From: an uncultured Muribaculaceae bacterium
GTDB taxonomy: Bacteria > Bacillota_I > Bacilli_A > RF39 > UBA660
DNA: 64,000 nucleotides
Direction of reading: 5' to 3'
Assembly (NCBI GenBank): GCA_964587565.1
Contig: CAZPLK010000001.1
Coordinates: 701-64,700, forward strand
Below are positions 2,189 through 17,504 of this stretch, in pieces (the first letter of the stretch is position 1; every line of letters begins with the position of its first letter). Both the position numbers and the translations under genes were made by a program. Below the pieces are notes generated by a model that saw only the letters and a program-made list of their open reading frames with translations, was not told the origin of the DNA and made no database searches.

Positions 2189-2202
2189 GAAGGAGTGATG
2201 TT

Positions 2203-2352
2203 ATGAAGAAAGGTGAAAACAAAGTTAATTTTGATTTATCAACATTAAAATTAGAAGAATTAATAGATGTTTATAAAAACATAAATGACTTTCTTAAATT
2301 TTTAGATGAATCAAAAATTAAACAAAGTGAGAAGGTGGAAAATCCGAATGGC
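2203..2352 (+). CDS. Small hypothetical protein (49 aa), translationally coupled to the next gene
   Basis: Good RBS 'gaaggagtgatgtt' before the ATG. The stop overlaps the downstream start (atggctaa). Not in the supplied ORF track (too short). Confidence 0.3.
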
Positions 2353-4000
2353 TAATTTTTTAAATTTTATTAATGATGATATTATTGCTAAAAAAACATT
2401 ACTTTCTACTTTACCAACAAAAACAAAAGCTAATATTAAAAATTATAATGATAAAATAAATTCAATTATAAAAGATTATGAAAGTTATAAGGAAAGTGTT
2501 AGAAAATATCTTATTGCAAAAAATAATTCCTTTGAAATTGATAAAAATTATCATAATGTCGATGTCTTAAAAAAAGAAATAGAAGAATTAGAACAAATAC
2601 GGTTGTTATTAAATCCAACCAATACTTTTTTTGAAAAGATGGGATTTGATACACTTTTATATAACATAAGAAATTATTCTGATTTTAATTTCACTTCTAT
2701 GAATGAAATAATAAATGAATTTTTAACTAATTTTGAAAAAGCTGGTATTATACTTACAGTAAGCGATTTTGATTACACATATTATGTTAGAGAATATATG
2801 TCGTCATTTTTGGATATTAGAAATTCAACAAGTAGAAGTTTTGATATGTTATCAAAAACATTTGAAGAAATTTATTGGGAAAACCCAAATCTAATTCAAC
2901 AAATAGAACTTAATTTTAGAAAATTAATCAAAAAAAATCGTCGTAAATTTGACGCATACATCGCTAATGCGCAAAAAGAAATAATGTGGAAAAATAATAT
3001 TGGGAATTATAAAGATTGTATAAATAAACTTAAAATAAAATATTCTGAGTTAGAGGAAAATGGCAAAGAAGATATTGCAGATATTATTGAATTAGCCAAA
3101 AAAGGTGAGTTGGAAATCAATAATTTCTTTGAAGGTAGTAGAGTAATGGAAACGACATACCAATCATTAACAATTGAACAATTAGATTTAAATAACAAGC
3201 AATCATTGGACAACTTTTACGCTAATTTAAAAAAATTAAAAGATAATATTAATGAATACAATAATTACTTAACTTTTATGCCTTTGTTTGAAAATTTTAA
3301 AAATGAATTTAGAAAACCTCAACCTTCCACAATACAAGAGCCAGCTAGAAGAAACATAAGTAAATTACGTGCTATAGAAACAAAAATAAATGAAAAAGAA
3401 AATATACTTGCAAAATTAAATCGTAATTTATTTTCAACCGGAAGAAGTTTCTTTGGTTTTAAAAATGATATTCCTCCTCGTCAAATAAAACAGGATTCAA
3501 TTATTTTGTCTTCTGAACTATATAAGCTTTATAATGACTTTGATCAAGAATTATTTAGAGAAAAAGTTAAGCAAATTTTAAATGATTTTTTAACTGTGCC
3601 AGAATTACTACATTTATACTATAGTTTTGATTACTTTAAAAAGAAAGATATTAAAAAGGCTTTTAATTTAGAACAATATGATGAAATAATCCAGCAAAGC
3701 AAAAAATTTGATGAATTTGCAAAGAATCCTAATAATTTAATAACTAATGGTGTATCAATATTCTCAAAAAGTGATATCAGTAAAATAATTGTAAATAAAT
3801 ACCGCCTCGATAATATAAATATCACAGAAGAAAATTTAGAGCAAAGAGAATTAGAATCGTTATTAAATCAAATTGAATATTTACTTAGAATAGAAAAAAT
3901 TAATAAAAGTGAAACTACAGTAGAAAAAATTTGGTTTATGGTGAAAGTTACTAATATATTAAAAAAAGAAGAAGAAGAAAAAAAGAAAAAAATTCCGTAA
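2348..4000 (+). CDS. Hypothetical cytoplasmic coiled-coil protein of about 550 aa, no signal peptide, lysine-rich C-terminal tail
   Basis: Long ORF. The ATG at 2348 is preferred (RBS 'aaggtgg', overlaps the stop of the small ORF) over the track start at 2306. No recognisable catalytic motifs; K/N/E-rich helical composition. Confidence 0.45.
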   Translation: MANFLNFINDDIIAKKTLLSTLPTKTKANIKNYNDKINSIIKDYESYKESVRKYLIAKNNSFEIDKNYHNVDVLKKEIEELEQIRLLLNPTNTFFEKMGFDTLLYNIRNYSDFNFTSMNEIINEFLTNFEKAGIILTVSDFDYTYYVREYMSSFLDIRNSTSRSFDMLSKTFEEIYWENPNLIQQIELNFRKLIKKNRRKFDAYIANAQKEIMWKNNIGNYKDCINKLKIKYSELEENGKEDIADIIELAKKGELEINNFFEGSRVMETTYQSLTIEQLDLNNKQSLDNFYANLKKLKDNINEYNNYLTFMPLFENFKNEFRKPQPSTIQEPARRNISKLRAIETKINEKENILAKLNRNLFSTGRSFFGFKNDIPPRQIKQDSIILSSELYKLYNDFDQELFREKVKQILNDFLTVPELLHLYYSFDYFKKKDIKKAFNLEQYDEIIQQSKKFDEFAKNPNNLITNGVSIFSKSDISKIIVNKYRLDNINITEENLEQRELESLLNQIEYLLRIEKINKSETTVEKIWFMVKVTNILKKEEEEKKKKIP

Positions 4001-4082
4001 GGAGTTTTTTTAATGTAAAAAAAGTCGAATTGTGTTATAATTATATTATAATAATACTATGGCTCTATAAAGGAATGATGTT

Positions 4083-7000
4083 ATGGTAAAGGGGAATATA
4101 AAAACAAATAATATTAAAAAAGTTAATTACATAATTATTTTAGTATGTATAATTTTTTTGTTGCTTATATCAATTCCTACTATGGCAAGATTTAAAAATA
4201 GAAACACTTTAAAAAGAGTAACTACATGGGATGGTAGTGTCGCTAAAAATTATCGCAGCGGTGACGGTTCAAAAGAAAATCCCTTTTTAATAACCAACGG
4301 TTCTGAATTGGCGCATTTTTCTGAACAATTAGAAACAAATAATTATTTAGATATTTATTTTGAATTAAATAACGATATCATTATTAATGAAGGAATATTT
4401 AAATATGATGCAAATAACGGCATTTTATATATTAAAGATAATATAACTTATTATGTTGATCACGATACTAACAAATATTATAAAACAAAAGAACGTGATG
4501 GTGAGGTTATAGGAACTATTAATACGATGAAATCATTTGATAATTTCAAAGGACATTTTAATGGAAATTCATTTTCTATATTTGGATTTTATTTATCAGA
4601 TGAAATTAGCAATGAACTAGCACCGTTTACTAATTTGAATGGGAATATTAACAATCTTTATTTAGAAAATACAATGATTTATGGTGGTAATTATACTTCC
4701 GGTGTAGTCTCAGTTGCAAATAATAGTGAGTTAGAAAACATTTTTTCATCTGGCTATGTAGTAGGTAACAAGGATTATACATTGAATGAAAAAATAATTA
4801 CGTTACCAAATATAGAAGAAACACTTTCAAATGATGAATTAATTAAAAATGTTGAACTACCTAATAAAATACCATTAATTCACAGTGACATTAAAAACAT
4901 TAGTATTACTGGTAAAGTGGATTTATTAAATAAATGTGATCAAATAACTTTATTTGTAAATGACGTTGAAATAGAAAAAGCTGGGGAATTTGAATTAGAA
5001 CTAAATAATGAAATTTCTAAAAACTTAAATTTTAAACTTGTTTCCCAATGTAATGAAGAAACAAATATAAAAATAACAAATTTGCAATATAATGTGAAAT
5101 ATAATCACTCAGCAACAGCTGGAATTATTGCATTATCGCATAACAATAAATTGAAAAACATAATAAACAAAAGTGAAGTTTATGGTGAATTTATAAGTTC
5201 TGGATTAATTGGTACCAGCATAGATTCATTAACTATAACAAACGCTTATAATAAAGGTGCTATTAACAGCGAGAACAAAGGTGCGGGTTTAATAGGAGTT
5301 ATTGAGCAAAGTGACGATGTAATAATTAACAAATCATTTAATGAAGGTAATATAAATTTAGAAGATAATATAGGTTTAATATCTAATATATATAACGTTG
5401 ATAATATGATCGTTCAAAATAGTTTTAACACAGCTAACACTAATTATTTAATAAACACAATTCAATATTCTGTTGTTAATTTTGAAAATGTCTTTTACAC
5501 AACTGGATTAACACCTATCAAAGACGGTATTTATAATGGAATGATTAACGTTACCTTTTTAGAAAACTTAAAAGACAAGGAATTTTTAACAAATTATTTA
5601 TATTTTGAAGAGTTTGATGAAATAGAAAATATAAGCGAAGGCAAAAAAGTTTGGATTTTTGAAGAGGAAAGTTTGCCAATATTATATATTGATGATTTAA
5701 ACAAACCTCTTGTTAATATAAATGCTTTAACATACTCATGGAATAATTATTCTACTTCATTAAATGGTTATAAATTTTCTAAAAATATAACTTTTAATAT
5801 AGAAGAAGCAAATGAATTAAATAAAGTGGAAAATATATATTATTATATAAGTAACACTAGTGAACCATTATTCAAAGAAGAGTTAAATCAAATTAGTAAG
5901 TGGGAAACTTACAATGACATTGTTCAAATAAAAGAAGAAGGAATTTATGTTATATATGCTAAAATAATCGATATAAATGGAAATGTATTTTATATAAACA
6001 CAGATGCACTAGTCCTTGATTCAACAGGTATAACTTTAAATATAAGTTATAAAGATTTTTCATGGTCAGAATTTAGTAACGATTTAAAACAAATTTATAT
6101 TTACGAGCCTGAAATTTTAAATGTATCTTATAACAGTGTAATTTCATCAATAACTAACGCTCAATATTATATATCAAATGAACAATTAACAAGCAAAGAG
6201 TTAGATCAAATCACTGATTATGGCTGGAACGATTTAGAAGATGATATTTTGGTTAGCAATGTAGGGAATAACATAGTTTATGTAAAATTAATTGATAACT
6301 TTGGTTATGTTACATACGCCAATACTGATAAAATCTATATGGATTCTTATATTAATTCTAAAACATTACTCGGTAGAGGTGTTAAAGATTACCTAAACAA
6401 AGATTATAATATAAACACGAAATCATCTATTACTTTAACTTATAAATATTTAAATGAAGAAGCAAGTGATGATGCAGAATATTCACACAACTTAATTACA
6501 AGTAGTTTATTACCGAAGAATACTATTATTACTTTAATAGATAACATAAAAGAAAAGGTTTACACATACCAAATTCCAACTGATGAAGATTATTATAATT
6601 ATAATAAATCATGCGAATCGAATGATGGTGAATGTTATAAATATGCAACATATCCCTTTACTTTATTTAAAGAGGTCGGAATAGCGAATAAACCATTTGT
6701 GGAAGAGAGTTATTTTGTAGCGGGTAAAATAGAAGAAAACTTTGATGTAATAATAGATTTTTCTAAAACAAACATTACTGAAAATTTAACTAATGTAAAA
6801 GTTAAATTAGAAAAAACTAATAATAATATTTATATTACTACTAATGATAAAAATATTAAAACCTTTAATGTATTACAAGATTCTAATTATAATTTGAAAA
6901 TAAATACTGATTATGAAGATGGTCCGATTTTATACAATACCGATTCAGTAACAAATATTAATTTAACTGGTGGCGTAAAGTATTTTAAAACTAATAATAC

Positions 7001-7757
7001 TGAAATAATTGATACTTCTATTGAAAATAAAATATTAGGACTAGCTATTAGATTAGTAGATAGTGATGGAAAAATTATAGATAAAAAACATCTTAAAAAT
7101 TTAACATTTAAAATAGATAAAAACCAATTTTATCCAGAAAACGATAATGTAATTAGGGCAAAAATAGACAATAATTTTGAAAACTTAAACAAAACCTTAA
7201 CAGTTATAACAAATAAAACAAATAATACATTGAAAAATGGTGAATATTATTTGGAAATAAACACTTATTTGTCAATTGATGGATATTACTTTGATGAAAT
7301 AAGTAAAGACAAAATAAGTATACCAATTATAGTAGATAAAAAAGATTATATGCCATCGCATCTCTTTGATGTCCAAGTGGATGTGGAAAGTCAAATTATA
7401 AACAAAGAAGAAGAAAATGTGGACTTGAATTTTAATATAATACAAGGTGGCGAATTAGAAGAGCCAAACATAAGAATTTCTTTGTACCAAAAAAATCAAT
7501 TAACCGCTTATGATCAAAGTTACTCACTAATTGATTTAGATGATTATATAACTAACAATTTAGAAATAACAAGTCCAAATGTATACTATTTATCAAAAAA
7601 ACCTGTTGAATATACCGAAAAGGAAAAAAACATTAATGAGTACACTTTGAATATAAAAACTAATTTATTAGAAAATCACTCATATAAATTTGTGTTTGAT
7701 TTATATGATAATAATATAAAAATTAGTTCATTAGATAAATATTTCATTGTAAAATAA
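4083..7757 (+). CDS. Large (1224 aa) N-terminally anchored or secreted surface protein with parallel beta-helix-type repeats followed by beta-rich (probably Ig-like) domains
   Basis: N-terminal 'K-rich + IIILVCIIFLLLISIPTMA' signal/anchor. 'GSKENPFLITNGSELAHFSEQ' followed by 'FKGHFNGNSFSIFGFYL' and repeated 'N.G.I.......GGLIG' blocks ('SSGLIGTSIDSLTITNAYNKGAINSENKGAGLIGVIEQS') are typical of adhesin-like beta-helix/GLUG repeats. Confidence 0.55.
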   Translation: MVKGNIKTNNIKKVNYIIILVCIIFLLLISIPTMARFKNRNTLKRVTTWDGSVAKNYRSGDGSKENPFLITNGSELAHFSEQLETNNYLDIYFELNNDIIINEGIFKYDANNGILYIKDNITYYVDHDTNKYYKTKERDGEVIGTINTMKSFDNFKGHFNGNSFSIFGFYLSDEISNELAPFTNLNGNINNLYLENTMIYGGNYTSGVVSVANNSELENIFSSGYVVGNKDYTLNEKIITLPNIEETLSNDELIKNVELPNKIPLIHSDIKNISITGKVDLLNKCDQITLFVNDVEIEKAGEFELELNNEISKNLNFKLVSQCNEETNIKITNLQYNVKYNHSATAGIIALSHNNKLKNIINKSEVYGEFISSGLIGTSIDSLTITNAYNKGAINSENKGAGLIGVIEQSDDVIINKSFNEGNINLEDNIGLISNIYNVDNMIVQNSFNTANTNYLINTIQYSVVNFENVFYTTGLTPIKDGIYNGMINVTFLENLKDKEFLTNYLYFEEFDEIENISEGKKVWIFEEESLPILYIDDLNKPLVNINALTYSWNNYSTSLNGYKFSKNITFNIEEANELNKVENIYYYISNTSEPLFKEELNQISKWETYNDIVQIKEEGIYVIYAKIIDINGNVFYINTDALVLDSTGITLNISYKDFSWSEFSNDLKQIYIYEPEILNVSYNSVISSITNAQYYISNEQLTSKELDQITDYGWNDLEDDILVSNVGNNIVYVKLIDNFGYVTYANTDKIYMDSYINSKTLLGRGVKDYLNKDYNINTKSSITLTYKYLNEEASDDAEYSHNLITSSLLPKNTIITLIDNIKEKVYTYQIPTDEDYYNYNKSCESNDGECYKYATYPFTLFKEVGIANKPFVEESYFVAGKIEENFDVIIDFSKTNITENLTNVKVKLEKTNNNIYITTNDKNIKTFNVLQDSNYNLKINTDYEDGPILYNTDSVTNINLTGGVKYFKTNNTEIIDTSIENKILGLAIRLVDSDGKIIDKKHLKNLTFKIDKNQFYPENDNVIRAKIDNNFENLNKTLTVITNKTNNTLKNGEYYLEINTYLSIDGYYFDEISKDKISIPIIVDKKDYMPSHLFDVQVDVESQIINKEEENVDLNFNIIQGGELEEPNIRISLYQKNQLTAYDQSYSLIDLDDYITNNLEITSPNVYYLSKKPVEYTEKEKNINEYTLNIKTNLLENHSYKFVFDLYDNNIKISSLDKYFIVK

Positions 7758-7768
7758 GAGGTGATTTA

Positions 7769-8314
7769 ATGAAACGTAAAATATATATAATTTTCTTATT
7801 TCTCTTTGCATTAACACTAATGTCAGGGATTACATATTCTATATTTCATTCAAACATTAATTTAAATTCTGTTGATCAAAATGTTGCAAAGTTTATTTTT
7901 AATTCTGAATATGTAGATGAAATAAAGTTGCCGCTTATTGATTTAAAACCGGGTGATAAGGAAGAATTTTTATTTAACGTTAGTAATTATGATAATGAAA
8001 AAACTAGTGATGTAATAATTGAGTACAATTTAATTATAAAAACTTATCATTTCTTACCTTTAAATATTGAATTATATAAAATTAATGAAGATAATGAAGA
8101 AAAAATTTTATCATGTGATGAAACTTTTTCACGAAATGAAGATAATTATTTAATATGCAATACGGATGATTTTTATTTAGATTATAATATAGAAACAATG
8201 GATAATTATAAATTAATCGTCAAATTCCCAAAAGAATTTAATAGTGAAAAATATGCAGGATTAGTTGATTTTCTTGATGTTGAAATTAAAAGTAGACAAA
8301 AAATTGTAAATTAA
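7769..8314 (+). CDS. TasA/camelysin-family secreted protein (181 aa)
   Basis: Signal peptide 'IYIIFLFLFALTLMSGITYSIF'. 'IDLKPGDKEEFLFNVSNYDNEKTSDVIIEYNL' aligns with B. subtilis TasA 'LSNLKPGDKLTKDFQFENNGSLAIKEVLMALNY' (identical 'LKPGDK'). Confidence 0.65.
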   Translation: MKRKIYIIFLFLFALTLMSGITYSIFHSNINLNSVDQNVAKFIFNSEYVDEIKLPLIDLKPGDKEEFLFNVSNYDNEKTSDVIIEYNLIIKTYHFLPLNIELYKINEDNEEKILSCDETFSRNEDNYLICNTDDFYLDYNIETMDNYKLIVKFPKEFNSEKYAGLVDFLDVEIKSRQKIVN

Positions 8315-8326
8315 GGTGGTGCTACG

Positions 8327-9226
8327 TTGAAAAAAAAGAAATATTTTTATTTAGGATTATTTACAATCTTAATGTTTGGATTAATATATTACGGTATTAC
8401 ATTTGCTAAGTATGTTGCAGACATTACACACGATTTTTATTTGCAATCAAAAGGATTTTATTTTACAAGTGATCAACTAAATGAGGAAACTCTTATTAAC
8501 TACAATAATATATGGGATGGTAATAGTGTTTTCTTTAATGTAAAAAACTATTTAAACGAATCTGTAATCTCAACATATGACATTTATTATGATGTTATAT
8601 GTGAAATAGAAGGTGACGCTTCAAACTATTATGAGTGTGATTTAAATGATTCAGGACAAAGTCATATTAATGGCGTACTATCAAATTTTCAAAGTTGTAT
8701 TAATGAAACAAATGATTCCGTTGATGTTAGTCAATTTAATAAAACAGAATGCGAATTAAGTGGTTATAATTGGGTTAATCATAAAATTGTTAAAGATTTA
8801 TTTTTTAATGTAATTCCTCTTAGTCAAAATTATAAAATGGAAAATATATCCGTTCAAATAAAAATAAAGAGTACAAAACCTTATAAAAAGAAATTAATAG
8901 GGCAGTTTAATTTAAGCAAAAGCAATCTTGAAGAAAGTAAGATAGTTTTAAATTATAATAATTATTCAAAATTTGATGAATTGATAATTTCAAATTCACA
9001 TGATGTTTCAAAGTGTGCAGACATTTCATGGGATCCAAACAATATCGTACTTGGTTCAAACGAAAAGCAATTCAATTCATATGTTGTGGAAAGCAATGGA
9101 TATATAAGTGGAATAAAATTAATGTTAAATCCTAAAATGAGCCAAAGTATTATATTTTATAAAAAAGATTTTTCGTTAAACTATAATGTAAATGAGTTTA
9201 CATTAACTGAGTTAGATGAGTGTTAA
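8327..9226 (+). CDS. TasA/camelysin-like secreted protein (299 aa), TTG start
   Basis: RBS 'aaggtggtg'. N-terminal signal followed by 'YGITFAKYVADITHD'. Cys-rich beta-type composition. Related to the minus-strand gene at 16878-17504 ('YSRYVADATGN'). Confidence 0.5.
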   Translation: MKKKKYFYLGLFTILMFGLIYYGITFAKYVADITHDFYLQSKGFYFTSDQLNEETLINYNNIWDGNSVFFNVKNYLNESVISTYDIYYDVICEIEGDASNYYECDLNDSGQSHINGVLSNFQSCINETNDSVDVSQFNKTECELSGYNWVNHKIVKDLFFNVIPLSQNYKMENISVQIKIKSTKPYKKKLIGQFNLSKSNLEESKIVLNYNNYSKFDELIISNSHDVSKCADISWDPNNIVLGSNEKQFNSYVVESNGYISGIKLMLNPKMSQSIIFYKKDFSLNYNVNEFTLTELDEC

Positions 9227-9294
9227 AAAATTATATTCAATATATTTGGATTGATAAGTGGAATAAAGTGTGTTAATATGAAAGTGGTGGTATA

Positions 9295-9831
9295 ATGAAA
9301 ATATTAAAAGTTGTTAAAAATGTTATTGTAACTACATTAGTAGTGCTGTTTTTTATCTTTGCACTATCAATGACTATGTTATTATTAAACTATAACCAAT
9401 ATGGTGTAACTCAGTTTGAAAATAAATCATTAATTATTATTAGAGATGAAATATCTTCTGATAAATATAAAAAAGGAGATCTTGTTATTACTGAAGCCGG
9501 AAGAGTTAGTAACTTAAAAAAAGGTGATGAATTGTTTGTATATAGATTAAAACGTGATAATACTGTTGAAATTGATTTAGGTATTGTTGATTATGTAGAA
9601 AATGATTCAGTTACATTTGTTAATGGCGAAACTTACAATTCGGAATTTATAGCAGGTAAATCAACAAAGATATATAATGATATAGGAACGACCTTATCTT
9701 TTGTAACTTCAAAATGGGGATTCCTATTTCTAATATTAGTTCCAAGTTTTCTCATTTTTGTATACCAAGTTTATGCATTAATTATTGAAATAAAATATGG
9801 TGAAGAAGATTACTTGTATGATTATGTGTAA
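9295..9831 (+). CDS. SipW-like (TM - beta domain - TM) protein lacking the Ser/His catalytic dyad; probable inactive signal-peptidase paralog
   Basis: Same topology and 'GDLVI...KKGDELFVY' blocks as the two SipW homologs downstream. No 'SGSM' serine box and no 'THR/THE' histidine box. Confidence 0.4.
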   Translation: MKILKVVKNVIVTTLVVLFFIFALSMTMLLLNYNQYGVTQFENKSLIIIRDEISSDKYKKGDLVITEAGRVSNLKKGDELFVYRLKRDNTVEIDLGIVDYVENDSVTFVNGETYNSEFIAGKSTKIYNDIGTTLSFVTSKWGFLFLILVPSFLIFVYQVYALIIEIKYGEEDYLYDYV

Positions 9832-9849
9832 ATTATTACATTTAATATA

Positions 9850-9877
9850 GCACGTTTATTAAAAACGTGTTTTTTTA
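9850..9877 (+). terminator. Rho-independent terminator after the first surface-protein operon
   Basis: Stem cacgttt / aaacgtg (9851-9857 / 9863-9869), loop attaa, followed by an 8-T run. Confidence 0.6.
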
Positions 9878-9909
9878 ATATTTCAAAAAAAATAAAATGT
9901 CTTAATTTG

Positions 9910-9938
9910 TTGTAAAAAACTAGCTAATATGGTAAAAT
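9910..9938 (+). promoter_or_regulatory. Sigma-A-type promoter (TTGTAA - 17 nt - TGgTAAAAT, extended -10) for the SipW-fusion/McrB-like operon
   Basis: Read directly: -35 at 9910-9915, TG at 9930-9931, -10 TAAAAT at 9933-9938. Gene start at 9976 with RBS 'ggaaggg'. Confidence 0.5.
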
Positions 9939-9975
9939 TTATATATGGTAGAGTCTAAAGAGTAGGAAGGGTACT

Positions 9976-12327
9976 ATGAATAATAATAAAAACGTTGTTG
10001 TTGAAAAAGCAATTAATTTTTTATTGAATATATTGATTTTCATGTTTAGCATATTTTTATTGATATCTGTTTATATTGGATTTCAAACAAGAATTATCGG
10101 TAACGACTATGCTAATTTTTTTGGATATTCTTTGTTTGAAGTGCAAAGCGGAAGTATGGAAGATGAAATCAAAATTGGTGATTGGATTGTTGTAAAGCTA
10201 ACTAAAAACGTTGATTTTAATGATATTATAACATTTGAATTAGACGGAGAATTTGTAACACATCGCATTGTAGAGGTATATAAAGGTACTTTTGTTACAC
10301 AAGGGGATGCAAATAATAAAAAAGATGATCCAATAGATCAAAGTCAAGTAGTTGGTAAAGTAGTAAAAGTTTTAGGAGGGTTTGGCATTATAAGAAAGAC
10401 ATTATTTAATCCAATAGTATTATTATCACTTATAATTACGTTATTGTTGTTTAACTTTGCTTTTAAAAGTAATAAAATTAGTATAAACAATGAGTTAATA
10501 AATAATTTGTTAGAAAGTTTAGGTAATTTCATTGAAAACATTACTAATAAATTTAATAAATTGCTCAATAAAGACGAAATAAATGAAAGTTTCTTTGAAA
10601 AACAAAATTTAAATAGTGGTTTTATGAGTATAGAAAAGCAAGATGATTTTTTTGAAACAAAAGAATATGAAAAATTAGAAGAAGAATTAAGTAAAACCGC
10701 ATTGTATAGAGTAGTGACGGTTGATAAAGATAACGTTAAAGAAGATTTTAAAGTTTTAACGCCACAAAAAAAGACAGTAGAACAAATAGAAGAAGACTTG
10801 AGCAAAACATCATTGTACAGAATTATATCAGCTAATACAGAAGATGTCCCAAACAAATATAAAAACACTGACGTCAAAGTAAGTAGTAAAACTCAAACTC
10901 AAAAATATGCAGAAATTGAGGATGAATTAGGGAAAACTTCAATTTTCAGGGTAATATCAGTTGATAACGAAGAAGGCGAAAATGAAAAGCAAGAAAAGAT
11001 AAGCGAAACTTCACTGCATCGCTTTGTATCGGTAAATAATAATGAAACTGATAAAACTATTTCTGAAATCGCAAAACATGAAATAAAAGAGGAGCAGAAG
11101 CCTGAGAATGTAAAAATTAATCAAGAAGATAAAGAAATTACAAAAGTGGAAAAAGAAGATGATGAACACACTAAAGAAGAAGGGTTAACGGATATTAATT
11201 TAGAACTATTAAAAAGTAAAAATAGCAGACGTGGTAAAAATATTATTGATAAAACAATGATTATTAAAAAAGAAGAGTTAGATGAATTAATTGATATTTT
11301 AGTAAAAGACGATCCTACATATGTATACCGCGCAAGGGTTAAAGACAGATTCATCATATCTTACACTGATGCAAAATATTATAATTATTATGGTGCTGTT
11401 GAAATCGAAACACGTGGCAGGAACTTAACATCTAGAATAAAAGTTATTATTAAAATCTTAACTGAAGATATAATAAAAGAATACAAAGGCAAAGATAAAA
11501 ATTACCATGAAATTATTGAAAAATACTTAAAATTATTTACACTAATTGCCGATTTAGAGCAAGCAAGGGATTCAGCAACTACTGTAACAGCAAAAAAGAA
11601 ATTATATAGCAAATACCTTAATGATTATTTTGGCAATGTTAAACAAAGTGAAATAAATAATTTGATTGATGAAATTATGGATGTTCAACAAAGATACTTG
11701 GATACTATTAATTACTTTTTAGATCAACTAAAAACGAATGCTTTCGTACTGACTCAAAATAAAATAGTAGGTGCTAGGAACATGTTTGGACTATCACTTG
11801 AACATAATATTACGTTTAGTAAAGTTTATAGCGATTACATTATTGATAAAACATATACCGAGGGAATTGTGGCGGAAGATAAAGTATCAGTATTACTATC
11901 ACTGTTATCAGTACAATTAGTTGATGATATGTTAAATGCCAACTTTGACAACAAATATGTTGTTCATATACCAGTAAGTTTATACGGGAAAAAGCGCAAA
12001 TTGGCAAGTACTTTAAGACTTATAGATAATGAATATGCTAAAAGTAATATTATAATTTTAATTGAATATAAAGACTTATTAAAAAACAGACAAGTTGTTA
12101 AAGAATACAAAAAATCAGGATATAGATTTGGCTTAACATTTCATAAAAATGATAATTTATTAAAAAAGGATCACTCGTTATTATATATAGTAAATTGTTT
12201 CTTTATAAACAGAAGAACAAATGATATGAAAAAGATAATTTTATCAATACCAGAAGAATTATCGGATAAAATTATATCAGATGATGTTATTACTAAAGTG
12301 GGTGATTTTGGGGGTGAATCAACATGA
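9976..12327 (+). CDS. Type I signal peptidase SipW (archaeal-type S26) fused to a 4x tandem-repeat linker and a large cytoplasmic C-terminal domain resembling a degenerate EAL domain
   Basis: N-terminal TM. 'SGSMEDEIKIGDWIVVKL', 'VTHRIVEV' and 'TQGDANNKKDDPID' match the B. subtilis SipW Ser/His/GDAN boxes. A second TM ('PIVLLSLIITLLLFNFAF'). Four repeats of 'EE[ED]L[SG]KT[AS][LI][YF]R[VI][VI][ST]V[DN]'. C-terminal domain has 'YGAVEIETRG', 'ILIEYKDLL', 'GYRFGLTFHKND' and 'LLYIVNCFFINRR', which resemble the EAL blocks GvEALlRW / lEiTE / DDFGTG / lKIDrsF. Confidence 0.6.
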   Translation: MNNNKNVVVEKAINFLLNILIFMFSIFLLISVYIGFQTRIIGNDYANFFGYSLFEVQSGSMEDEIKIGDWIVVKLTKNVDFNDIITFELDGEFVTHRIVEVYKGTFVTQGDANNKKDDPIDQSQVVGKVVKVLGGFGIIRKTLFNPIVLLSLIITLLLFNFAFKSNKISINNELINNLLESLGNFIENITNKFNKLLNKDEINESFFEKQNLNSGFMSIEKQDDFFETKEYEKLEEELSKTALYRVVTVDKDNVKEDFKVLTPQKKTVEQIEEDLSKTSLYRIISANTEDVPNKYKNTDVKVSSKTQTQKYAEIEDELGKTSIFRVISVDNEEGENEKQEKISETSLHRFVSVNNNETDKTISEIAKHEIKEEQKPENVKINQEDKEITKVEKEDDEHTKEEGLTDINLELLKSKNSRRGKNIIDKTMIIKKEELDELIDILVKDDPTYVYRARVKDRFIISYTDAKYYNYYGAVEIETRGRNLTSRIKVIIKILTEDIIKEYKGKDKNYHEIIEKYLKLFTLIADLEQARDSATTVTAKKKLYSKYLNDYFGNVKQSEINNLIDEIMDVQQRYLDTINYFLDQLKTNAFVLTQNKIVGARNMFGLSLEHNITFSKVYSDYIIDKTYTEGIVAEDKVSVLLSLLSVQLVDDMLNANFDNKYVVHIPVSLYGKKRKLASTLRLIDNEYAKSNIIILIEYKDLLKNRQVVKEYKKSGYRFGLTFHKNDNLLKKDHSLLYIVNCFFINRRTNDMKKIILSIPEELSDKIISDDVITKVGDFGGEST

Positions 12328-13850
12328 ATACATTTTTTAGATTTTTCTATGAATTTATTTCAGTTTTTATTTCGGGTATTACATTAGTAATAAAAGGATT
12401 GATTGCAGGGGTTATTCAAATTATAAACGTTAGAGAGTATCAAAAAATTATTAATAGTTATAAAGAAAACTTTAAAACCTCTCAATGGATTTTAGTTGGA
12501 TTTTCGATCGCACTTTTAGTAATCATTATAGCTCTTGTAATATTTTTAATAATTATAGGAATTAGAAGGTTTTTAAGATTTAGAAGAACAAGATTAAATC
12601 AAGAAGATTTATTAGATGAAATTGCAGATTTAAACGATCAAGTTAGGAAGTTAATGAAGGAAAAAGATGAAATAATGGCAATGAAAGTATCAAAACTGGG
12701 TCTTAAACCTGGTGAAGAAGGTTATGAAGATAGCTTAGAAGAGTTAGAAGATGGTGAAATCGATATGTCCAATATTAGATTTCCAAAATTACATAAAATT
12801 GATCAAGATTATAAAAACTTTAAAGCAAGAAATTATAATAATAACTTTACATTAGAAGAATTAGTTGATAATTTTCAAGCTTATGCAGCTAGTCAATTAA
12901 AGCTTTATTACGAAAAATCTTTATTAAGAGCATTTATAGGTGGTTTATCAACTGGACGTTTAATTATATTACAAGGTATATCCGGAACTGGTAAAACATC
13001 CTTAGCTTATGCTTGGGGGAAGTTCGTTAACAAGGATTCTTGTGTGGCATTTGTTGAACCGTCATGGCGAGATAAAACTGAATTTCTAGGTTATTTTAAT
13101 GAATTTACAAAAAAATTTAACGAAACAGATGTATTAGCAGAACTTTATGTCGCATCGCTGGATGATGATGTTCATACGATTATTCTTGATGAAATGAATA
13201 TAGCACGAGTAGAATATTATTTTGCAGAAATGCTTTCTATTTTAGAAATGCCATCACGTGATGAGTGGATTATTGAATTGGTTACAAGTTCTTGGAAAGA
13301 AGATCCGGAAAGGATTGTGGGTGGTAAATTAAAACTACCTGGTAATTTATGGTATATCGGTACCATTAATAATGACGATTCAACGTTTATGGTTACTGAT
13401 AAAGTTTATGACCGTGCGATGCCAATAGATATTAATAATCGTATTGATCCATTTGAAACAAGAGAACAAGAAGCGATGAGTATCAATGCTAGTTATTTAG
13501 AAAATTTATTTGAAGAAGCTACAAAAACTCATCCAGTGTCGGCGGAAAATTTACAAAAAATTAAAGACATGGATGATTATGTAATAAAACATTTTAGAGT
13601 TGCTTTTGGTAACAGAATTATGATGCAACTACAAACATTTGTACCTGTTTATGTTGCTGGAGGTGGTTCCGAAGTAGAAGCGATAGATTACTTTATTGCA
13701 CGAAAAATATTCCGTAAATTCGATCAATTAAATTTTGCACTTATCCGTAATGAAATCGATCCGTTTATTGAATATTTAAACAAAGAATTTGGAGACGGTG
13801 TTATGAAAGAATCAATTGATTATTTTGAATTATTAAAAAAATCAATGTAA
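12324..13850 (+). CDS. Membrane-anchored McrB-like AAA+ GTPase (AAA_5 family) with an N-terminal TM hairpin and a coiled coil
   Basis: 'LIILQGISGTGKTSLAYAWGKFV' matches McrB 'IILQGPPGVGKTFVARRLAYLL'; 'FVEPSWRDKTEFLGYF' matches 'QFHQSYSYEDFIQGY'; 'IILDEMNIARVEYYFAEMLSILE' matches 'FIIDEINRANLSKVFGEVMMLME'; 'NLWYIGTINNDDSTFMVTDKVYDRAMPIDI' matches '[31 protein letters not shown]'. N-terminus 'WILVGFSIALLVIIIALVIFLIIIGIRRFLRFRR' is a TM segment. 4-nt overlap with the upstream gene. Confidence 0.7.
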   Translation: MNTFFRFFYEFISVFISGITLVIKGLIAGVIQIINVREYQKIINSYKENFKTSQWILVGFSIALLVIIIALVIFLIIIGIRRFLRFRRTRLNQEDLLDEIADLNDQVRKLMKEKDEIMAMKVSKLGLKPGEEGYEDSLEELEDGEIDMSNIRFPKLHKIDQDYKNFKARNYNNNFTLEELVDNFQAYAASQLKLYYEKSLLRAFIGGLSTGRLIILQGISGTGKTSLAYAWGKFVNKDSCVAFVEPSWRDKTEFLGYFNEFTKKFNETDVLAELYVASLDDDVHTIILDEMNIARVEYYFAEMLSILEMPSRDEWIIELVTSSWKEDPERIVGGKLKLPGNLWYIGTINNDDSTFMVTDKVYDRAMPIDINNRIDPFETREQEAMSINASYLENLFEEATKTHPVSAENLQKIKDMDDYVIKHFRVAFGNRIMMQLQTFVPVYVAGGGSEVEAIDYFIARKIFRKFDQLNFALIRNEIDPFIEYLNKEFGDGVMKESIDYFELLKKSM

Positions 13851-13863
13851 AGGGTGATTAAAA

Positions 13864-14997
13864 ATGTCTAAGGCCATAAAGGTAAGTATAGATGAAAAAT
13901 TAAGGAAAAAAAGTAATACATTTAGCAACAGAATAAAATCAGATATGTACTTTAAGGGTGAGGTTTCTGGCGAATCAATTTCATTTGAATGGTTGGATAT
14001 AATTGAAGAAGCTTGCCCTTACTTAGATAATGTTATTAGAAATCCTAGAGTTGCACTTATTACTGAAGAAGAAATTGTTAAAATAGAAAAAGCTAAAAAG
14101 GTCTCTGTTGCTAGTGTTAAAAATTTAGCTAAAAACACACAATACATTGATAAAATTGATAAAGTAACAGAAGATGTGCAACCGTCACGACTTTTAATTG
14201 AAAGACGTGAAGAAACATATAATACATACGAAAACAGATTTCTTTTTACAGTTGTAAAATTATTAATAAGATTTGTCGCTGACAAAGAAGAATCATTAAA
14301 AGAATTGATTATGAAAAAAGATAAAGTTATGGAATATGCTGCTGTTACTAACACAGACACAGAAAGAGTTAATATTAAATTAAATATTTCTACAAGTGAA
14401 ATACCAAAAGAAGTTATGGCTGATGCCTATGAAAATGAAATTAATAATGTTAAAAATCGTTTAAAAGAAATTAATGCATATTTTTCTATGTGGCAAAGAA
14501 GTGATTTTATGACTTCATTAGAAAAAGCTAGAGTAACTCCGGTATCGCCTCCAATAAGAAAGACAAACTTAATCTTAAAAAATCCTAATTTTCAAATGGC
14601 TACAAAATTATGGGAGTTTTTGAGAAATTACGAAGATGAAGAAAAAGATGAAACAAAAGTTGATTTGGAAACAACTGGAAATAAAATGTTAAAAGGAATA
14701 TTGGATGATATGTTTTTAACAAATTATTTTGTTTTAGATTCAATAAAAGCTGATAAAAGTGCTGAAAAGGAAAAATTAACTAAATATGCTGTCTTAATGT
14801 TAACACAACAAGTTAGACGTGCAATTCAACTATTAATAGATAGTGGGGTTGAAATTTCAGATGAAGAGATAATTAGTATGATTTCAGCTGAAATTAAAGC
14901 AGACGAAGGGAAAACAACAGCAGATAGTTCTGATGTTAAGAGAAAATTTAAAAAAGCTGTTGATGATTATATAGAGAAAATGCAAGATTATTTGTAG
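13864..14997 (+). CDS. Hypothetical cytoplasmic partner of the McrB-like GTPase (possible McrC-N-terminal/DUF2357-like activator; no nuclease motif)
   Basis: Starts 13 nt after the GTPase gene with RBS 'aagggtga'. Contains 'ETYNTYENRFLFTVVKLLIRFV', which resembles the 'NxxENRF' block seen in McrC-like partners. No PD-(D/E)xK motif found. Confidence 0.3.
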   Translation: MSKAIKVSIDEKLRKKSNTFSNRIKSDMYFKGEVSGESISFEWLDIIEEACPYLDNVIRNPRVALITEEEIVKIEKAKKVSVASVKNLAKNTQYIDKIDKVTEDVQPSRLLIERREETYNTYENRFLFTVVKLLIRFVADKEESLKELIMKKDKVMEYAAVTNTDTERVNIKLNISTSEIPKEVMADAYENEINNVKNRLKEINAYFSMWQRSDFMTSLEKARVTPVSPPIRKTNLILKNPNFQMATKLWEFLRNYEDEEKDETKVDLETTGNKMLKGILDDMFLTNYFVLDSIKADKSAEKEKLTKYAVLMLTQQVRRAIQLLIDSGVEISDEEIISMISAEIKADEGKTTADSSDVKRKFKKAVDDYIEKMQDYL

Positions 14998-15005
14998 GTG
15001 GTAAA

Positions 15006-15569
15006 ATGAATATAATAAATGAAAATAAAATTTTAAAAATAATAATAAAAATTATTAAAACAGCTATTTTGATTTTTTTATTAGGATTTATACTAGTTGT
15101 TTGCTTACAGCGCTTTAGCAATAATAAGATTTCTTTTTTTAAATATCGAATGTTTATAGTAGTATCAGGCAGTATGTATCCGGTTTATGACATAGGAGAT
15201 GTATTAATAGCTAAAGAAGTCAAACCTTCAACGATTAAAGTTGGTGATGCAATTAGTTATGAAGGTAAAGTAGGAGATTTAAAAGGCAAAGTAATAACAC
15301 ACGAGGTTATAAAAATAGATTATGATAAAGATTCCAATAAATATAAATTTCATGCAAAAGGTCGTGCAAACGTTATTGAAGATCCAATTGTTTCAGAAGA
15401 ACAATTATATGGAATAGTAATCCATAAAACTTTGTTACTGTCAATGATTTATAAAATAATAGGTACTCAACTGGGATTTTTCTTAGCTATTATAATACCC
15501 TTATTATATATATTTACCTCTGAGATTATTGGGTTTTTACTAGAACGTGAGGCTAAAAGAAGAGGTTAA
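15006..15569 (+). CDS. sipW: Type I signal peptidase SipW (archaeal/eukaryotic-type S26)
   Basis: N-terminal TM, 'FIVVSGSMYPVYDIGDVLIAKEV', 'VITHEVIKI', 'AKGRANVIEDPI', C-terminal TM; matches the B. subtilis SipW boxes. Confidence 0.7.
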   Translation: MNIINENKILKIIIKIIKTAILIFLLGFILVVCLQRFSNNKISFFKYRMFIVVSGSMYPVYDIGDVLIAKEVKPSTIKVGDAISYEGKVGDLKGKVITHEVIKIDYDKDSNKYKFHAKGRANVIEDPIVSEEQLYGIVIHKTLLLSMIYKIIGTQLGFFLAIIIPLLYIFTSEIIGFLLEREAKRRG

Positions 15570-15595
15570 AAAACGTTAGAAAAGGGGAGATGTGA

Positions 15596-16834
15596 ATGAA
15601 AAACAAGTATAAAGTTTACTGGCGTATAAATTTATTGTCGTTATTTTTTATCATCTTATCATTCATATCGGTTACATTGGCTTGGTTTGCCTATAGTGGA
15701 CTTTCTAATGTATCAACTGAAATTGGAGTAAAAGCTTGGTATATTACACTGGAAAAAGACGGTGAAATGATCTCGAATGATATTGTTATATCATCATCGG
15801 AAATATACCCAGGTATGGAAACATTGACAGAGACAGTTAAAATTCAAAATTTAGGAGATTCAGATGCAAATATAAGGTATTCAATTTTATCAGCAAGAAT
15901 ATTAGATCAACCTGAAAATAATTTTGTTGTAAATGACAAAACTGTTACAAGTGATTATGTTGAGGATCAATTATCGCATAGTTATCCTTTCAAAGTTAAT
16001 ATAAATTTATCAAAAGGATATGTTCTTGCAAAAGGTGATGAAAGTTTTTTTGAAGTTTCAATATCATGGCCACTTGATTCTGGTGATGATGGGTTAGATA
16101 GTTATTGGGGAAGTGAAGCTTTTAAGTTTCAACAAAGTGAAACAAATAGGAAAAGTGCTAATCCAGAATATCAAAAAAAACAACCTATACAAATAGTAAT
16201 TAGTGTAATCGCTGAACAAGATGTTGGTGATGAAAATTCAAATGATCCCAACTTTAATTTGGGAGATCAAATATTATTTGATGTAATTAATAATAAATCA
16301 TGTAAAGAATTAAGTGAGACTTGTATATCAACGTATGTAATTGATAGTAATAATAAAATAGCAAATAACAAAGTAACGCTTTTACCAACCCCTAGAAAGA
16401 CTTATTTAAGTGGTATTTATAGTAATTACAATTCTTTATTAAAGGGGGTAACAAGTGATTGGAATGTTGAAACACGGGCATTATATATTGAAGATATATT
16501 AAACGTAATATCAACAGATATTTTTAATTCAAAACTATTAAGTGATGAAATAACTGGAGTAGTAATCGGTGATTTAAAGTATCCGAATCGAATTCAAACA
16601 GAAATAGAAAAAGTAAAAAGTACAAATGGTTATTATAATTTTCGCAATGAGAAATTCCAATACATTTCCACAGCAAACTGTTATTGGATTAACAGTAGAT
16701 ATAATTCATCTAAATCATTTGCTATTAAGAGAGTTAATGAAGAAATTTCAAAAGTGTATGGTTTAGATAATAATTCTACATGTAATGTTGTCCCTGTAAT
16801 TACAGTGGATAAAAACAAAATAAAACAGGATTAA
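15596..16834 (+). CDS. TasA/camelysin-family secreted protein (412 aa) with SipW-cognate signal
   Basis: 'ISVTLAWFAYSGLSNVSTEIGVKAWYITL' aligns with CalY 'GGGTFAYFSDKEVSNNTFAAGTLDLTL'. 'VKIQNLGDSDANIRYSI' aligns with 'LLQNSGSLTIKDVKL'. Confidence 0.65.
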   Translation: MKNKYKVYWRINLLSLFFIILSFISVTLAWFAYSGLSNVSTEIGVKAWYITLEKDGEMISNDIVISSSEIYPGMETLTETVKIQNLGDSDANIRYSILSARILDQPENNFVVNDKTVTSDYVEDQLSHSYPFKVNINLSKGYVLAKGDESFFEVSISWPLDSGDDGLDSYWGSEAFKFQQSETNRKSANPEYQKKQPIQIVISVIAEQDVGDENSNDPNFNLGDQILFDVINNKSCKELSETCISTYVIDSNNKIANNKVTLLPTPRKTYLSGIYSNYNSLLKGVTSDWNVETRALYIEDILNVISTDIFNSKLLSDEITGVVIGDLKYPNRIQTEIEKVKSTNGYYNFRNEKFQYISTANCYWINSRYNSSKSFAIKRVNEEISKVYGLDNNSTCNVVPVITVDKNKIKQD

Positions 16835-16850
16835 CAAATCCTGTTTTACT
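16822..16850. terminator. Bidirectional rho-independent terminator between convergent genes
   Basis: 10-bp stem aaaacaggat / atcctgtttt, loop taacaa (contains the stop codon), T-rich on both sides. Confidence 0.6.
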
Positions 16851-16877
16851 TTGCAATATTGAATTATTTATGCCATT

Positions 16878-17504
16878 TTATTCAAATATTTGCTTAAATG
16901 ATACATCAGCTTTAATTTGTAATGTTATGTCTTCCGTAGCTGCCAAATGTCCGATCATTGAATCGTCTTCATCATTCATTAATTCCTCTTCACCCTCATA
17001 CCATTCAAAAAATATTCTTATAGTAAATGGTTTAAATTTAAAGTCCTCTTCTTCTTTGTTAAAGATTAATGCCTTTTTAATTTCTTTATCGTTTAAATTT
17101 ATTATTTCTATCGGATCATCTTCAATATAAGAGTCAGGTAAGATTGCATATTTAGTAATTATTAAATCAGGTATATTTTCATTTTGGACTTCTAAATTTA
17201 CTAAGTATTCAAACGATACTTCAACATTACTAGCATCTATCTTAATATCGAAATACCCTTTAGATGTTGGGGCGATTTTATTAGGCGCAATGTACTCGCT
17301 TTCTTCAATAATTGGTTCAAACATCAATGAAGATTCTGAGTTATTTGTAATATCTTCATTATTAACGAGTATTTGCCATTTAGCAAAAGTAGCCTCAATA
17401 TTCCCAGTTGCATCAGCAACATATCGTGAATATGTGGTACTCATAAGACAAAGACAAATGGATAAAGATAACATCCCAATTAAAAATTTTATTTTTCTAA
17501 ACAT
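16878..17504 (-). CDS. TasA/camelysin-like secreted protein (208 aa)
   Basis: Signal peptide then 'TTYSRYVADATGNIEATFAKWQIL', paralogous to 8327-9226. RBS 'aaaggagg' upstream on the minus strand. Confidence 0.5.
   Translation of the reverse strand: MFRKIKFLIGMLSLSICLCLMSTTYSRYVADATGNIEATFAKWQILVNNEDITNNSESSLMFEPIIEESEYIAPNKIAPTSKGYFDIKIDASNVEVSFEYLVNLEVQNENIPDLIITKYAILPDSYIEDDPIEIINLNDKEIKKALIFNKEEEDFKFKPFTIRIFFEWYEGEEELMNDEDDSMIGHLAATEDITLQIKADVSFKQIFE

Follow-up and report, generated by a model that had tools for sequence, protein, structure and literature searches.

A SipW-like signal peptidase carrying an EAL-like cytoplasmic module is genomically coupled to a membrane-anchored McrB-like GTPase in uncultured Bacilli

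We analyzed a 64,000-nucleotide (nt) stretch of contig CAZPLK010000001.1 (forward strand, positions 701 to 64,700; NCBI GenBank assembly GCA_964587565.1), placed by GTDB in the RF39 lineage of Bacilli_A and hereafter called the window, to whose first letter all coordinates refer. Its gene at 9976..12327 (+, ATG to TGA) encodes a 783-residue protein, the long SipW, in which a SipW-like signal peptidase continues into a 620-residue cytoplasmic tail that ends in a helical bundle and a β/α barrel, together referred to as the module. This module is a conserved and so far undescribed component of gene clusters of the CoCoPALM type, and it shows obligate genomic coupling to two proteins, a membrane-anchored McrB-like GTPase and its McrC-like partner. 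We favor, with a probability of about 0.55, the reading that the module is a YdiV-like dead EAL-fold adaptor that couples the SipW peptidase to the McrB-like/McrC-like GTPase. The initial annotation, made from the letters alone, had described a SipW peptidase fused to a large EAL-like domain, probably binding cyclic diguanosine monophosphate (c-di-GMP); it lacked the decisive context, namely the invariable coupling of the module to the GTPase and its partner.

The peptidase domain (residues 1–165; 9976..10470, +) is of the endoplasmic reticulum (ER)/archaeal, SipW-like type of signal peptidase I. It matches TIGR02228 (E = 1.7e-17; 63.7 bits, cut-off 51.85) and PF00717 (E = 3.6e-7; 30.3 bits, cut-off 23.3), and a PDB search with a homologue-built family profile retrieved human SEC11A/C (E = 4.5e-5). 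The equivalog model of Bacillus SipW, NF046067, scored 58.4 bits (E = 6.6e-16), below its curated cut-off of 190 bits; judged by this score, the protein is therefore SipW-like rather than an orthologue of Bacillus SipW. Kyte–Doolittle hydrophobic segments at residues 6–41 and 136–166 lie on either side of the catalytic domain and contain the predicted transmembrane (TM) helices TM1 (residues ~14–36; nt 10015–10083, +) and TM2 (residues ~143–163; nt 10402–10464, +). Between them are the Ser box SGSME (residues 58–62; nt 10147–10161, +), the His box THRIV (residues 95–99; nt 10258–10272, +) and the GDANN box (residues 110–114; nt 10303–10317, +), and the Ser, His and GDAN boxes are near-invariant among 102 homologues. 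The catalytic triad of Bacillus subtilis SipW is S47/H87/D106 (PMC8767453), to which SGSME, THR (95–97) and GDAN (110–113) correspond in an alignment; the Ser/His/Asp triad of the long SipW is intact, and the peptidase lies outside the membrane. Given two TM helices and the known cis-side C-terminus of SipW (PMC8767453), the 620-residue tail after TM2 is cytoplasmic. A complete SipW between two TM helices, followed by a cytoplasmic remainder, is also what the initial annotation had proposed, and both points hold. The window has a G+C content of ~24–33%, and a PADLOC scan of the long SipW gave nothing but a meaningless HORMA match (E = 0.008).

Searching with only the C-terminal part of the protein recovered 280 homologue clusters at 90% identity, nearly all of them 650–870 residues long and carrying PF00717; the 783-residue open reading frame is therefore not a chance reading frame. 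A frameshift or assembly artefact as the origin of the fusion was ruled out, as hundreds of independent assemblies share this architecture. When the tail alone was used in an exhaustive profile search, 381 representatives were returned at E ≤ 1e-3 (293 of them at ≤ 1e-10) and a second architecture emerged, in which free-standing proteins of ~320–357 residues, devoid of any Pfam domain, match the whole helical-plus-barrel module at 1e-28 to 1e-39. The module is an evolutionarily independent unit, either SipW-fused or free-standing. Relatives were found in 132 species-representative genomes, including one complete chromosome of 1.49 Mb, and derive almost entirely from uncultured ‘Bacilli’, ‘Mollicutes’, ‘Tenericutes’ or ‘Erysipelotrichia’ metagenome-assembled genomes (MAGs) from guts and digesters. 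Whether related genomes hold homologues of the fusion had been posed as a question by the initial annotation; they do, in abundance, and the novelty and uniqueness of the architecture were overstated in view of this conserved family and of the inside-out precedent of LapD/LapG (PMC3032553). Many public MAG records with this low-GC cluster of Bacilli type bear the title ‘uncultured Muribaculaceae bacterium’ (Bacteroidota), and ‘Ignavibacteriales’ appears in the title of one (loci L005, L006, L013, L014, L018–L020 and others); such records are probably mislabelled or mis-binned and not true occurrences outside the Bacilli.

The gene directly downstream (12324..13850, +) encodes the membrane-anchored McrB-like AAA+ GTPase of 508 residues, and its ATG overlaps the TGA of the long SipW gene (ATGA, 12324–12327). 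Within the PDB, this protein has the McrB AAA+ GTPase domain as its sole relative (6hz4, E = 2e-4), in a match that spans Walker A, DE(I/M)N.A and the N..D signature; these motifs read GISGTGKT (nt 12975–12998, +), LDEMN (nt 13185–13199, +) and INNDD, a signature of the NxD+D form (nt 13365–13379, +). The N-terminus contains hydrophobic segments at residues ~4–26 and ~56–87, the latter being strong, followed by the charged helical stretch RRFLRFRRTRLNQEDLLDEIADLNDQVRKLMKEKDEIM, and no match to Pfam FtsB/DivIC was obtained in this protein at E ≤ 1. The next gene (13864..14997, +) encodes the McrC-like protein of 377 residues with a DUF2357 domain (PF09823; E = 1.7e-12; 47.6 bits, cut-off 23.3), which is the McrC N-terminal domain and activates McrB (PMC11090510). 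Pfam detected no nuclease domain in this McrC-like protein, and a PDB sequence search was also empty. In all 63 fused loci for which 6 kb or more of downstream sequence was available, the TM-plus-AAA protein, the DUF2357 protein and a second SipW come next, in that order. The same holds where the module stands alone: in each of the four standalone contexts with downstream sequence, it is followed directly by the same AAA protein (47–57% identity where compared) and DUF2357, and upstream of standalone modules lie a short SipW and the same small secreted proteins. Of all components of the cluster, the AAA protein is the most strongly conserved, with a median identity of 66% versus 39% for the module.

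Conservation mapping and AlphaFold2 models divide the tail into a linker, a helical bundle and a β/α barrel. The linker (residues 166–399; 10471..11172, +) is an E/K/N-rich, variable and disordered cytoplasmic segment that ranges from 51 to 324 residues across fused homologues and that tblastn could detect in just 13 of the 83 related loci. Set in this otherwise unconserved acidic stretch are four copies of a motif (…LSKTxLYRVxxVD…; pattern [ED]L[SG]KT[SA]x[YFH]R[VIF][VI][ST][VA][DN]), found by pattern search at residues 236–250 (nt 10681–10725), 273–287 (nt 10792–10836), 316–330 (nt 10921–10965) and 341–354 (nt 10996–11037), all on the plus strand. Homologues carry between none and four copies, with at least one in 137 of 175 fused members; the strict pattern occurs only three times in the six-frame translation of the window, and no copy was found in any protein of the standalone-type cluster L087. 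These repeats are probably a docking motif. A tandem repeat at the DNA level was ruled out, TRF having reported only trivial AT-rich repeats.

The helical bundle (residues ~420–585; 11233..11730, +; helices at 24–184 of the modelled fragment) carries Y463, Y468 and Y469 within ‘AKYYNYY’, which are invariant across the family. The barrel (residues 586–783; 11731..12324, +) is modelled as a truncated, degenerate EAL-fold domain of ~200 residues, comprising a β1–β2 hairpin followed by four or five β-α units and stopping before the position of EAL strands 7–8. Directly after β2, on the C-terminal face of the barrel, a loop and helix start HNITFSKVYSDYIIDKTYTEGIVAEDK (residues 610–636; 11803..11883, +) forms the best-conserved stretch of the whole tail and holds Y618, S619, G630, E634 (99–100%) and K636, all conserved family-wide. 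The model of the window module reached a pLDDT (predicted local distance difference test) score of 86.2 and a predicted TM-score (pTM) of 0.85 from a 102-sequence alignment, and that of the standalone homologue P0197, which is ~30% identical, 92.7 and 0.89 from 36 sequences; HNITFSKVYSDYIIDKTYTEGIVAEDK has a pLDDT below 50 in the former versus 83–88 in the latter. Residues conserved in both architectures are Y463, Y468, Y469, F590, Y618, S619, G630, E634, K636, Y661, K672, K675, G715 and F718. Among them, the Tyr/Ser/Glu/Lys set (Y618, S619, E634, K636, Y661, K672 and K675) could constitute a protein interface or an anionic-ligand pocket.

By sequence, the tail does not present itself as an EAL domain. 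The Pfam model PF00563 (gathering score 31.3 bits) was run at E ≤ 10 on three fragments from the C-terminal part of the window protein and on 21 trimmed fused modules and found no match in any; for the tail, phmmer and the family profile likewise retrieved nothing from the PDB. As a positive control, Pfam recognized a divergent, AT-rich EAL domain in the same window (45884–47125; E = 4.8e-10, 39.6 bits), and BLASTP between the tail and that protein detected no similarity (E = 0.66). Profile–profile comparison by hhalign was non-significant, both with narrow profiles (a 4-sequence EAL profile; P = 0.42–0.54) and with 220 family sequences against 7 EALs (P = 0.08–0.21), the small self-made EAL profile having limited sensitivity. 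The EAL alignments were assembled from a consensus that retrieves EAL structures at 1e-82, three PDB sequences and native EALs, and an attempt to widen them with homologues of the native EAL returned only four. A home-made EAL hidden Markov model produced only noise against the 220 family proteins.

Judged from the models, the fold resemblance nevertheless appears real. A Foldseek search of the window model against 350,542 PDB chains placed essentially only EAL domains among its top ~22 matches (Bd1971, FimX, MorA, MucR, BifA and PA0575, with RocR and YahA lower), at statistics that are marginal (probability ~1.0, E from 3.6e-3 to 0.1, target-normalised TM-score 0.45–0.52). For P0197, the top 23 matches were all EAL (FimX, LapD, Bd1971, MorA and others), with YkuI and YdiV (3tlq, probability 0.92) lower. 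The antiparallel β1–β2 hairpin typical of EAL barrels is present in both models, and a relaxed hhalign alignment, although non-significant, was collinear over ~185 columns with each predicted strand on the matching EAL strand. Sub-threshold matches to PF00563 were found in 2 of 36 standalone homologues. The better one, P0226 (E = 0.06, 13.1 bits), has EAL as its only Pfam match, and its residues 226–286 align to profile positions 85–149 (β3 to β5), which is the predicted register. With EAL stated beforehand, this E value over 24,736 models corresponds by rough estimate to a per-model p of 2e-6, or ~1e-4 after ~60 related proteins, in a family whose members are not independent and whose compositional bias may flatter the score.

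These results make it likely that the last ~200 residues form an EAL-like, probably EAL-derived barrel. The fold call of the initial annotation was thus a good one, considering its sequence-only basis, and the structure prediction and fold search that it had proposed as a check put EAL domains at the top for two models, whereas the profile search proposed alongside came back empty. It had read the block order of an EAL domain over the last 450 residues, and that reading survives for residues 586–783 and fails for residues ~420–585, which are all-helical. Its first motif, GAVEIETRG (residues 473–481), falls in an unconserved loop of the helical bundle, so it was misassigned. The three others do lie on predicted strands, namely ILIEYKDLL (residues 694–702) on β4, GYRFGLTFHKND (residues 715–726) on β5 and LLYIVNCFFINRR (residues 735–747) on β6, and hhalign sets them against EitE, DDFGTG and KiD, respectively, in an alignment that is statistically non-significant.

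The same statistics can be read as fold convergence, in which case the C-terminus would be a generic flavodoxin/TIM-like domain serving the peptidase as a structural spacer or oligomerisation domain. Foldseek E values never fell below 1e-3 and TM-scores were ~0.5 or less, hhalign P stayed within 0.08–0.5, neither the window protein nor the 21 fused modules matched PF00563, and other TIM barrels also appear in the lists of fold matches. Convergence does not readily account, however, for two models of ~30% identity that both rank EAL first over ~22–23 consecutive top matches, for the presence of the unusual antiparallel hairpin characteristic of EAL barrels, for a register fully collinear with strand order, or for the in-register PF00563 match of P0226; and since the module is also maintained as a separate gene, it is not just a spacer. 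We consider this explanation unlikely.

The chemistry of EAL domains is absent from the module. In the register of the low-confidence hhalign alignment, the window protein keeps none of 11 catalytic or c-di-GMP-binding EAL residues: N595 takes the place of Q of QP, S607 that of E of EAL, E609 that of R, P666 that of N, L695 and Y698 that of ExxE, T721 and N725 that of DD, and F743 that of K, and the last two key positions, on the strands with EGVE and QG, lie beyond the end of the module. None of the 11 positions is conserved in 50% or more of the family (n = 220). EAL catalysis and c-di-GMP binding have been described as requiring ten conserved residues, of which YdiV has lost eight; YdiV is unable to bind c-di-GMP and acts through its binding to FlhD (PMC3510510). 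The loss of all 11 residues, the truncated barrel and the YdiV precedent together argue against c-di-GMP binding. The degeneracy of DDFGTG noted in the initial annotation is therefore confirmed and extends to every key position, and the c-di-GMP binder that it proposed is left unsupported.

A degenerate EAL barrel might still bind c-di-GMP in the manner of FimX or LapD and switch the extracytoplasmic SipW across the membrane. Receptors of this kind, FimX and LapD, are among the best fold matches, the invariant K672, K675, Y618 and Y661 sit where ligands of TIM barrels bind, and the logic of such control has a precedent in LapD/LapG (PMC3032553). The organism probably makes c-di-GMP, because the window encodes a genuine GGDEF-EAL protein of 413 residues (45884–47125, +; Pfam GGDEF 1.3e-21, EAL 4.8e-10). 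The GGDEF motif of that protein reads RRSGDEF, and its EAL half looks degenerate, with ‘ICIDNLNF’ at the place of DDFGTG. Set against these points are the loss of every EAL ligand residue together with the EGVE and QG strands, the inability of YdiV to bind the nucleotide after losing only eight of ten, and the failure of a Pfam model that does detect the divergent EAL of the same genome. Consensus queries for GGDEF, EAL, PilZ and DAC, run against 1.42 Mb of cluster neighbourhoods (the window and 83 loci, rather than whole genomes) from more than 80 family-bearing genomes, recovered only the window's own GGDEF-EAL gene; homologues of that protein form 4 clusters, compared with at least 280 for the module. 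The invariant partner of the module is a GTPase and not a c-di-GMP enzyme. We regard a c-di-GMP receptor as rather improbable and caution against annotating a c-di-GMP-sensing peptidase from EAL fold resemblance.

The module could instead be an enzyme with a new active site on an EAL/TIM-like scaffold, for example a phosphodiesterase or a nuclease making up for the PD-(D/E)xK nuclease that the McrC-like partner lacks, and the cluster or its McrBC-like core would then be a conflict or defence system. Such a role would fit a McrC-like protein that consists of DUF2357 only, the presence of TIM-barrel nucleases (UVDE) among the lower fold matches, the conservation of E634 alongside K636, K672 and K675, cluster flanks that vary between genomes, and the match of the McrB-like protein to PDC-M26A, a phage-defence candidate model of PADLOC, at 1.4e-38. 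That match, however, covers the GTPase domain only (163–316 versus 283–438 of 724), and a single invariant acidic residue provides no metal-binding acidic/His cluster. The module is also fused to a signal peptidase and surrounded by at least six secreted proteins and three SipW paralogues in every genome examined, and internal synteny is conserved in at least 132 species, unlike the patchy occurrence of typical defence islands. We hold an enzymatic or defensive function to be distinctly improbable. The PDC-M26A match implies that automated defence annotation could mislabel secretion-linked clusters as defence systems.

The long SipW gene belongs to a conserved cluster of ~17.5 kb (~1115–17504) that is syntenic in genomes with different flanks. 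Within it, terminator-like hairpins bracket a five-gene unit comprising the module-bearing SipW, the AAA protein, the DUF2357 protein, the second SipW and a 412-residue secreted protein. The upstream hairpin (9849..9871, +; 9-bp stem with a T-run) marks the end of the preceding transcription unit, and a 105-nt gap with the ribosome-binding site GGAAGGG separates it from the ATG at 9976. A hairpin scan placed a bidirectional terminator-like hairpin at 16815–16854. An Rfam scan of the window identified no RNA family.

Three genes of the cluster are SipW-like, an association kept in 63 of 63 loci and in the standalone-type clusters. Upstream of the long SipW, and outside the five-gene unit, a 178-residue SipW-like pseudo-peptidase with two TM segments (9295..9831, +) was recognized by alignment and by weak TIGR02228 and SipW matches; its catalytic Ser box reads RDEIS in place of SGSM and its His is replaced as well. 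This pseudo-peptidase is retained in 57 loci and in standalone-type clusters (L084, 1496–2275; L085, 6751–7284). The second, short SipW-type signal peptidase (15006..15569, +; 187 residues; TIGR02228 6e-19; 63 of 63 loci) keeps Ser (SGSMY) and His (THE), and its GDAN box reads GRAN, with Asp replaced by Arg. From its sequence, this putative peptidase may be inactive or may use another acidic residue, such as one in EDP after GRAN.

Six proteins of the cluster share a basic N-terminal stretch, a hydrophobic segment and then [ST]x[YFA][SA]x[FY], as in TYSRYVAD, TFAKYVAD, LAWFAYS and YAWFSTS. Four are encoded upstream on the plus strand and are syntenic in loci L001–L003: secreted proteins of 357 (1115–2188), 1224 (4083–7757), 181 (7769–8314) and 299 residues (8327–9226). 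The fifth, of 412 residues (15596..16834, +; 70 loci), has a SipW-class-like signal peptide (…VTLAWFAYS…) and is the last gene of the unit; the sixth, of 208 residues (16878..17504, −; …STTYSRYVAD…; 60 loci), is convergent with the operon and is the last conserved gene of the cluster. We take these N-termini to resemble the SipW-cognate signal peptides of TasA and CalY, a likeness confirmed by no profile, and the TasA, camelysin and pilin profiles did not match the secreted proteins of the cluster. By tblastn, the upstream cluster genes (1115..9226) were found in 39–54 loci.

The remaining upstream gene (2306–4000, +; synteny with L001–L003, 39 loci) encodes a cytoplasmic helical protein of 564 residues, which is K/E/N-rich, apparently all-helical and without a family match. 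Its counterparts measure 541–543 residues in L001–L003 and 540 in L087, and in relatives it is preceded by an open reading frame of 45–50 residues. This protein may be the coiled-coil component implied by the name CoCoPALM. Standalone-type clusters adjoin a giant surface protein of ~7,900 residues with DUF285 repeats (L087, 1–5791; L088, 1–5790), the window-type counterpart of which is the 1,224-residue secreted protein; in L001, a Bact_surface_Ig-like protein lies upstream. These surface proteins are candidate adhesin cargo or tip proteins.

The name CoCoPALM comes from one paragraph of the McrBC system census of Bell et al. 2024 (eLife 13:RP94800, PMC11090510), which describes an NxD-type McrB GTPase clade fused to an FtsB-like TM/coiled-coil domain and defers its description to a forthcoming paper. 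In the literature, the term was found only there and in the corresponding preprint. The window cluster agrees with that definition in its GTPase, assigned to the NxD type by motif and PDB match (INNDD being NxD followed by a second D; PDB McrB at E = 2e-4), in the N-terminal TM and helical segment of this GTPase, in a McrC homologue with DUF2357 and no detectable nuclease, and in the associated genes of the signal peptidase family. With an NxD+D McrB-like GTPase that is membrane-anchored, a partner carrying DUF2357 and associated signal peptidases, the cluster matches the CoCoPALM type in its definable features, as far as sequence allows. Neither the text nor the supplements of the census contain an EAL term or a peptidase tail, and the supplements have no CoCoPALM entries; the 620-residue-tailed peptidase, the helical-plus-EAL-fold module, its standalone form and the pseudo-peptidase are all unmentioned (PMC11090510).

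Among characterized EAL-like proteins, the closest parallel in kind is offered by YdiV and STM1697 of Escherichia coli and Salmonella, which share the EAL fold and the loss of most catalytic and c-di-GMP-binding residues; proteins of this type do not bind c-di-GMP and act by protein–protein contact (PMC3510510, PMC5622320). YdiV differs in being a complete eight-stranded barrel that Pfam and sequence comparison recognize as EAL-related and that targets the transcription factor FlhD4C2, whereas the window module is truncated, carries an additional N-terminal helical bundle, escapes recognition by sequence and has links to a peptidase and a GTPase. LapD–LapG and FimX–PilZ–PilB are alike in placing a degenerate cytoplasmic EAL on machinery in the membrane, which governs the extracytoplasmic protease LapG in the one case and, with FimX, the assembly of pili in the other, and LapD and FimX are among the top structural matches of the module. 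However, LapD and FimX keep the residues that contact c-di-GMP, are paired with GGDEF domains and match PF00563, while the module keeps none of the ligand residues; and LapG is a separate, sequestered protease, in contrast to the fused peptidase domain of the window protein. LapD is an established case of inside-out c-di-GMP control of periplasmic proteolysis by LapG, so that the concept of inside-out control is not new (PMC3032553, PMC3032545).

The peptidase itself resembles SipW of the B. subtilis tapA-sipW-tasA operon in its ER type, Ser/His/Asp triad, two TM helices and dedicated substrates within its own operon. The cytoplasmic C-terminus of B. subtilis SipW is described, in a passage of PMC8767453 that cites Terra et al. 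2012, as having a second, non-proteolytic regulatory role. Its tail has only ~20 residues, as opposed to 620 residues with two folded domains here, and the secreted proteins of the window cluster show no detectable similarity to TasA or camelysin; by analogy, the window protein can be seen as an extreme elaboration of this arrangement. The GTPase pair shares with the E. coli McrBC type IV restriction system an AAA+ GTPase with Walker A/B and an N..D signature and a DUF2357 partner that activates the GTPase, but differs in lacking the DNA-binding N-terminal domain and the PD-(D/E)xK nuclease, and in that the GTPase is membrane-anchored and lies in a secretion and signal-peptidase cluster.

In the favored YdiV-like adaptor reading, the peptidase domain would remove the SipW-class signal peptides of six or more cluster-encoded secreted proteins, which would be fibre or pilus subunits together with a large adhesin-like protein. 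The cytoplasmic module, as a non-enzymatic EAL-fold adaptor, would provide the dock between peptidase and GTPase complex on the cytoplasmic face of the membrane, possibly aided by the repeated linker motifs, of which the standalone-type cluster L087 has no copy. Through docking, the cleavage of signal peptides and the release of subunits would be coupled to a GTP-driven step, such as extraction, subunit hand-over or gating of assembly. Several points weigh against this reading. The linkage of module and GTPase is genomic, consisting of gene order, fusion and fission, and translational coupling; the pilus or fibre role is drawn from signal-peptide-like N-termini and one sentence of Bell et al. 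2024 (PMC11090510), with no pilin or TasA match; the CoCoPALM assignment follows the published definition and not the authors' own sequence set; and the polar residues strongly conserved at the barrel's C-terminal face might just as well make up a ligand-binding or catalytic site.

More tentatively, and as a possibility only, wall-reduced, small-genome Bacilli might possess a new kind of machine for assembling fibres or pili, with the module as its missing coupling device. An EAL-derived domain with a Tyr/Ser/Glu/Lys pocket of its own would then sense a nucleotide or anionic ligand, the nucleotide state of the McrBC-type GTPase, or both, and would gate the SipW peptidase. If so, a motor taken over from restriction systems would now serve to drive or permit the cleavage of signal peptides and the polymerisation of subunits.

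To our knowledge, almost nothing is known about the surface structures of these uncultured Bacilli, and CoCoPALM systems have been named but never described; the family reported here extends over at least 132 species-level genomes of uncultured, small-genome Bacilli from animal guts and digesters. Three observations provide a concrete anatomy for the possible recruitment of a restriction-type GTPase to protein secretion or fibre assembly: an invariant core in which the EAL-fold module precedes a membrane McrB-like GTPase, with a McrC that lacks a nuclease in third place; the occurrence of the module as a fusion to the signal peptidase in one lineage and as a free protein in another; and the loss of all EAL chemistry. 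On the adaptor reading, these findings would also extend the range of ‘dead’, YdiV-like EAL-fold adaptors to a form too divergent for Pfam.

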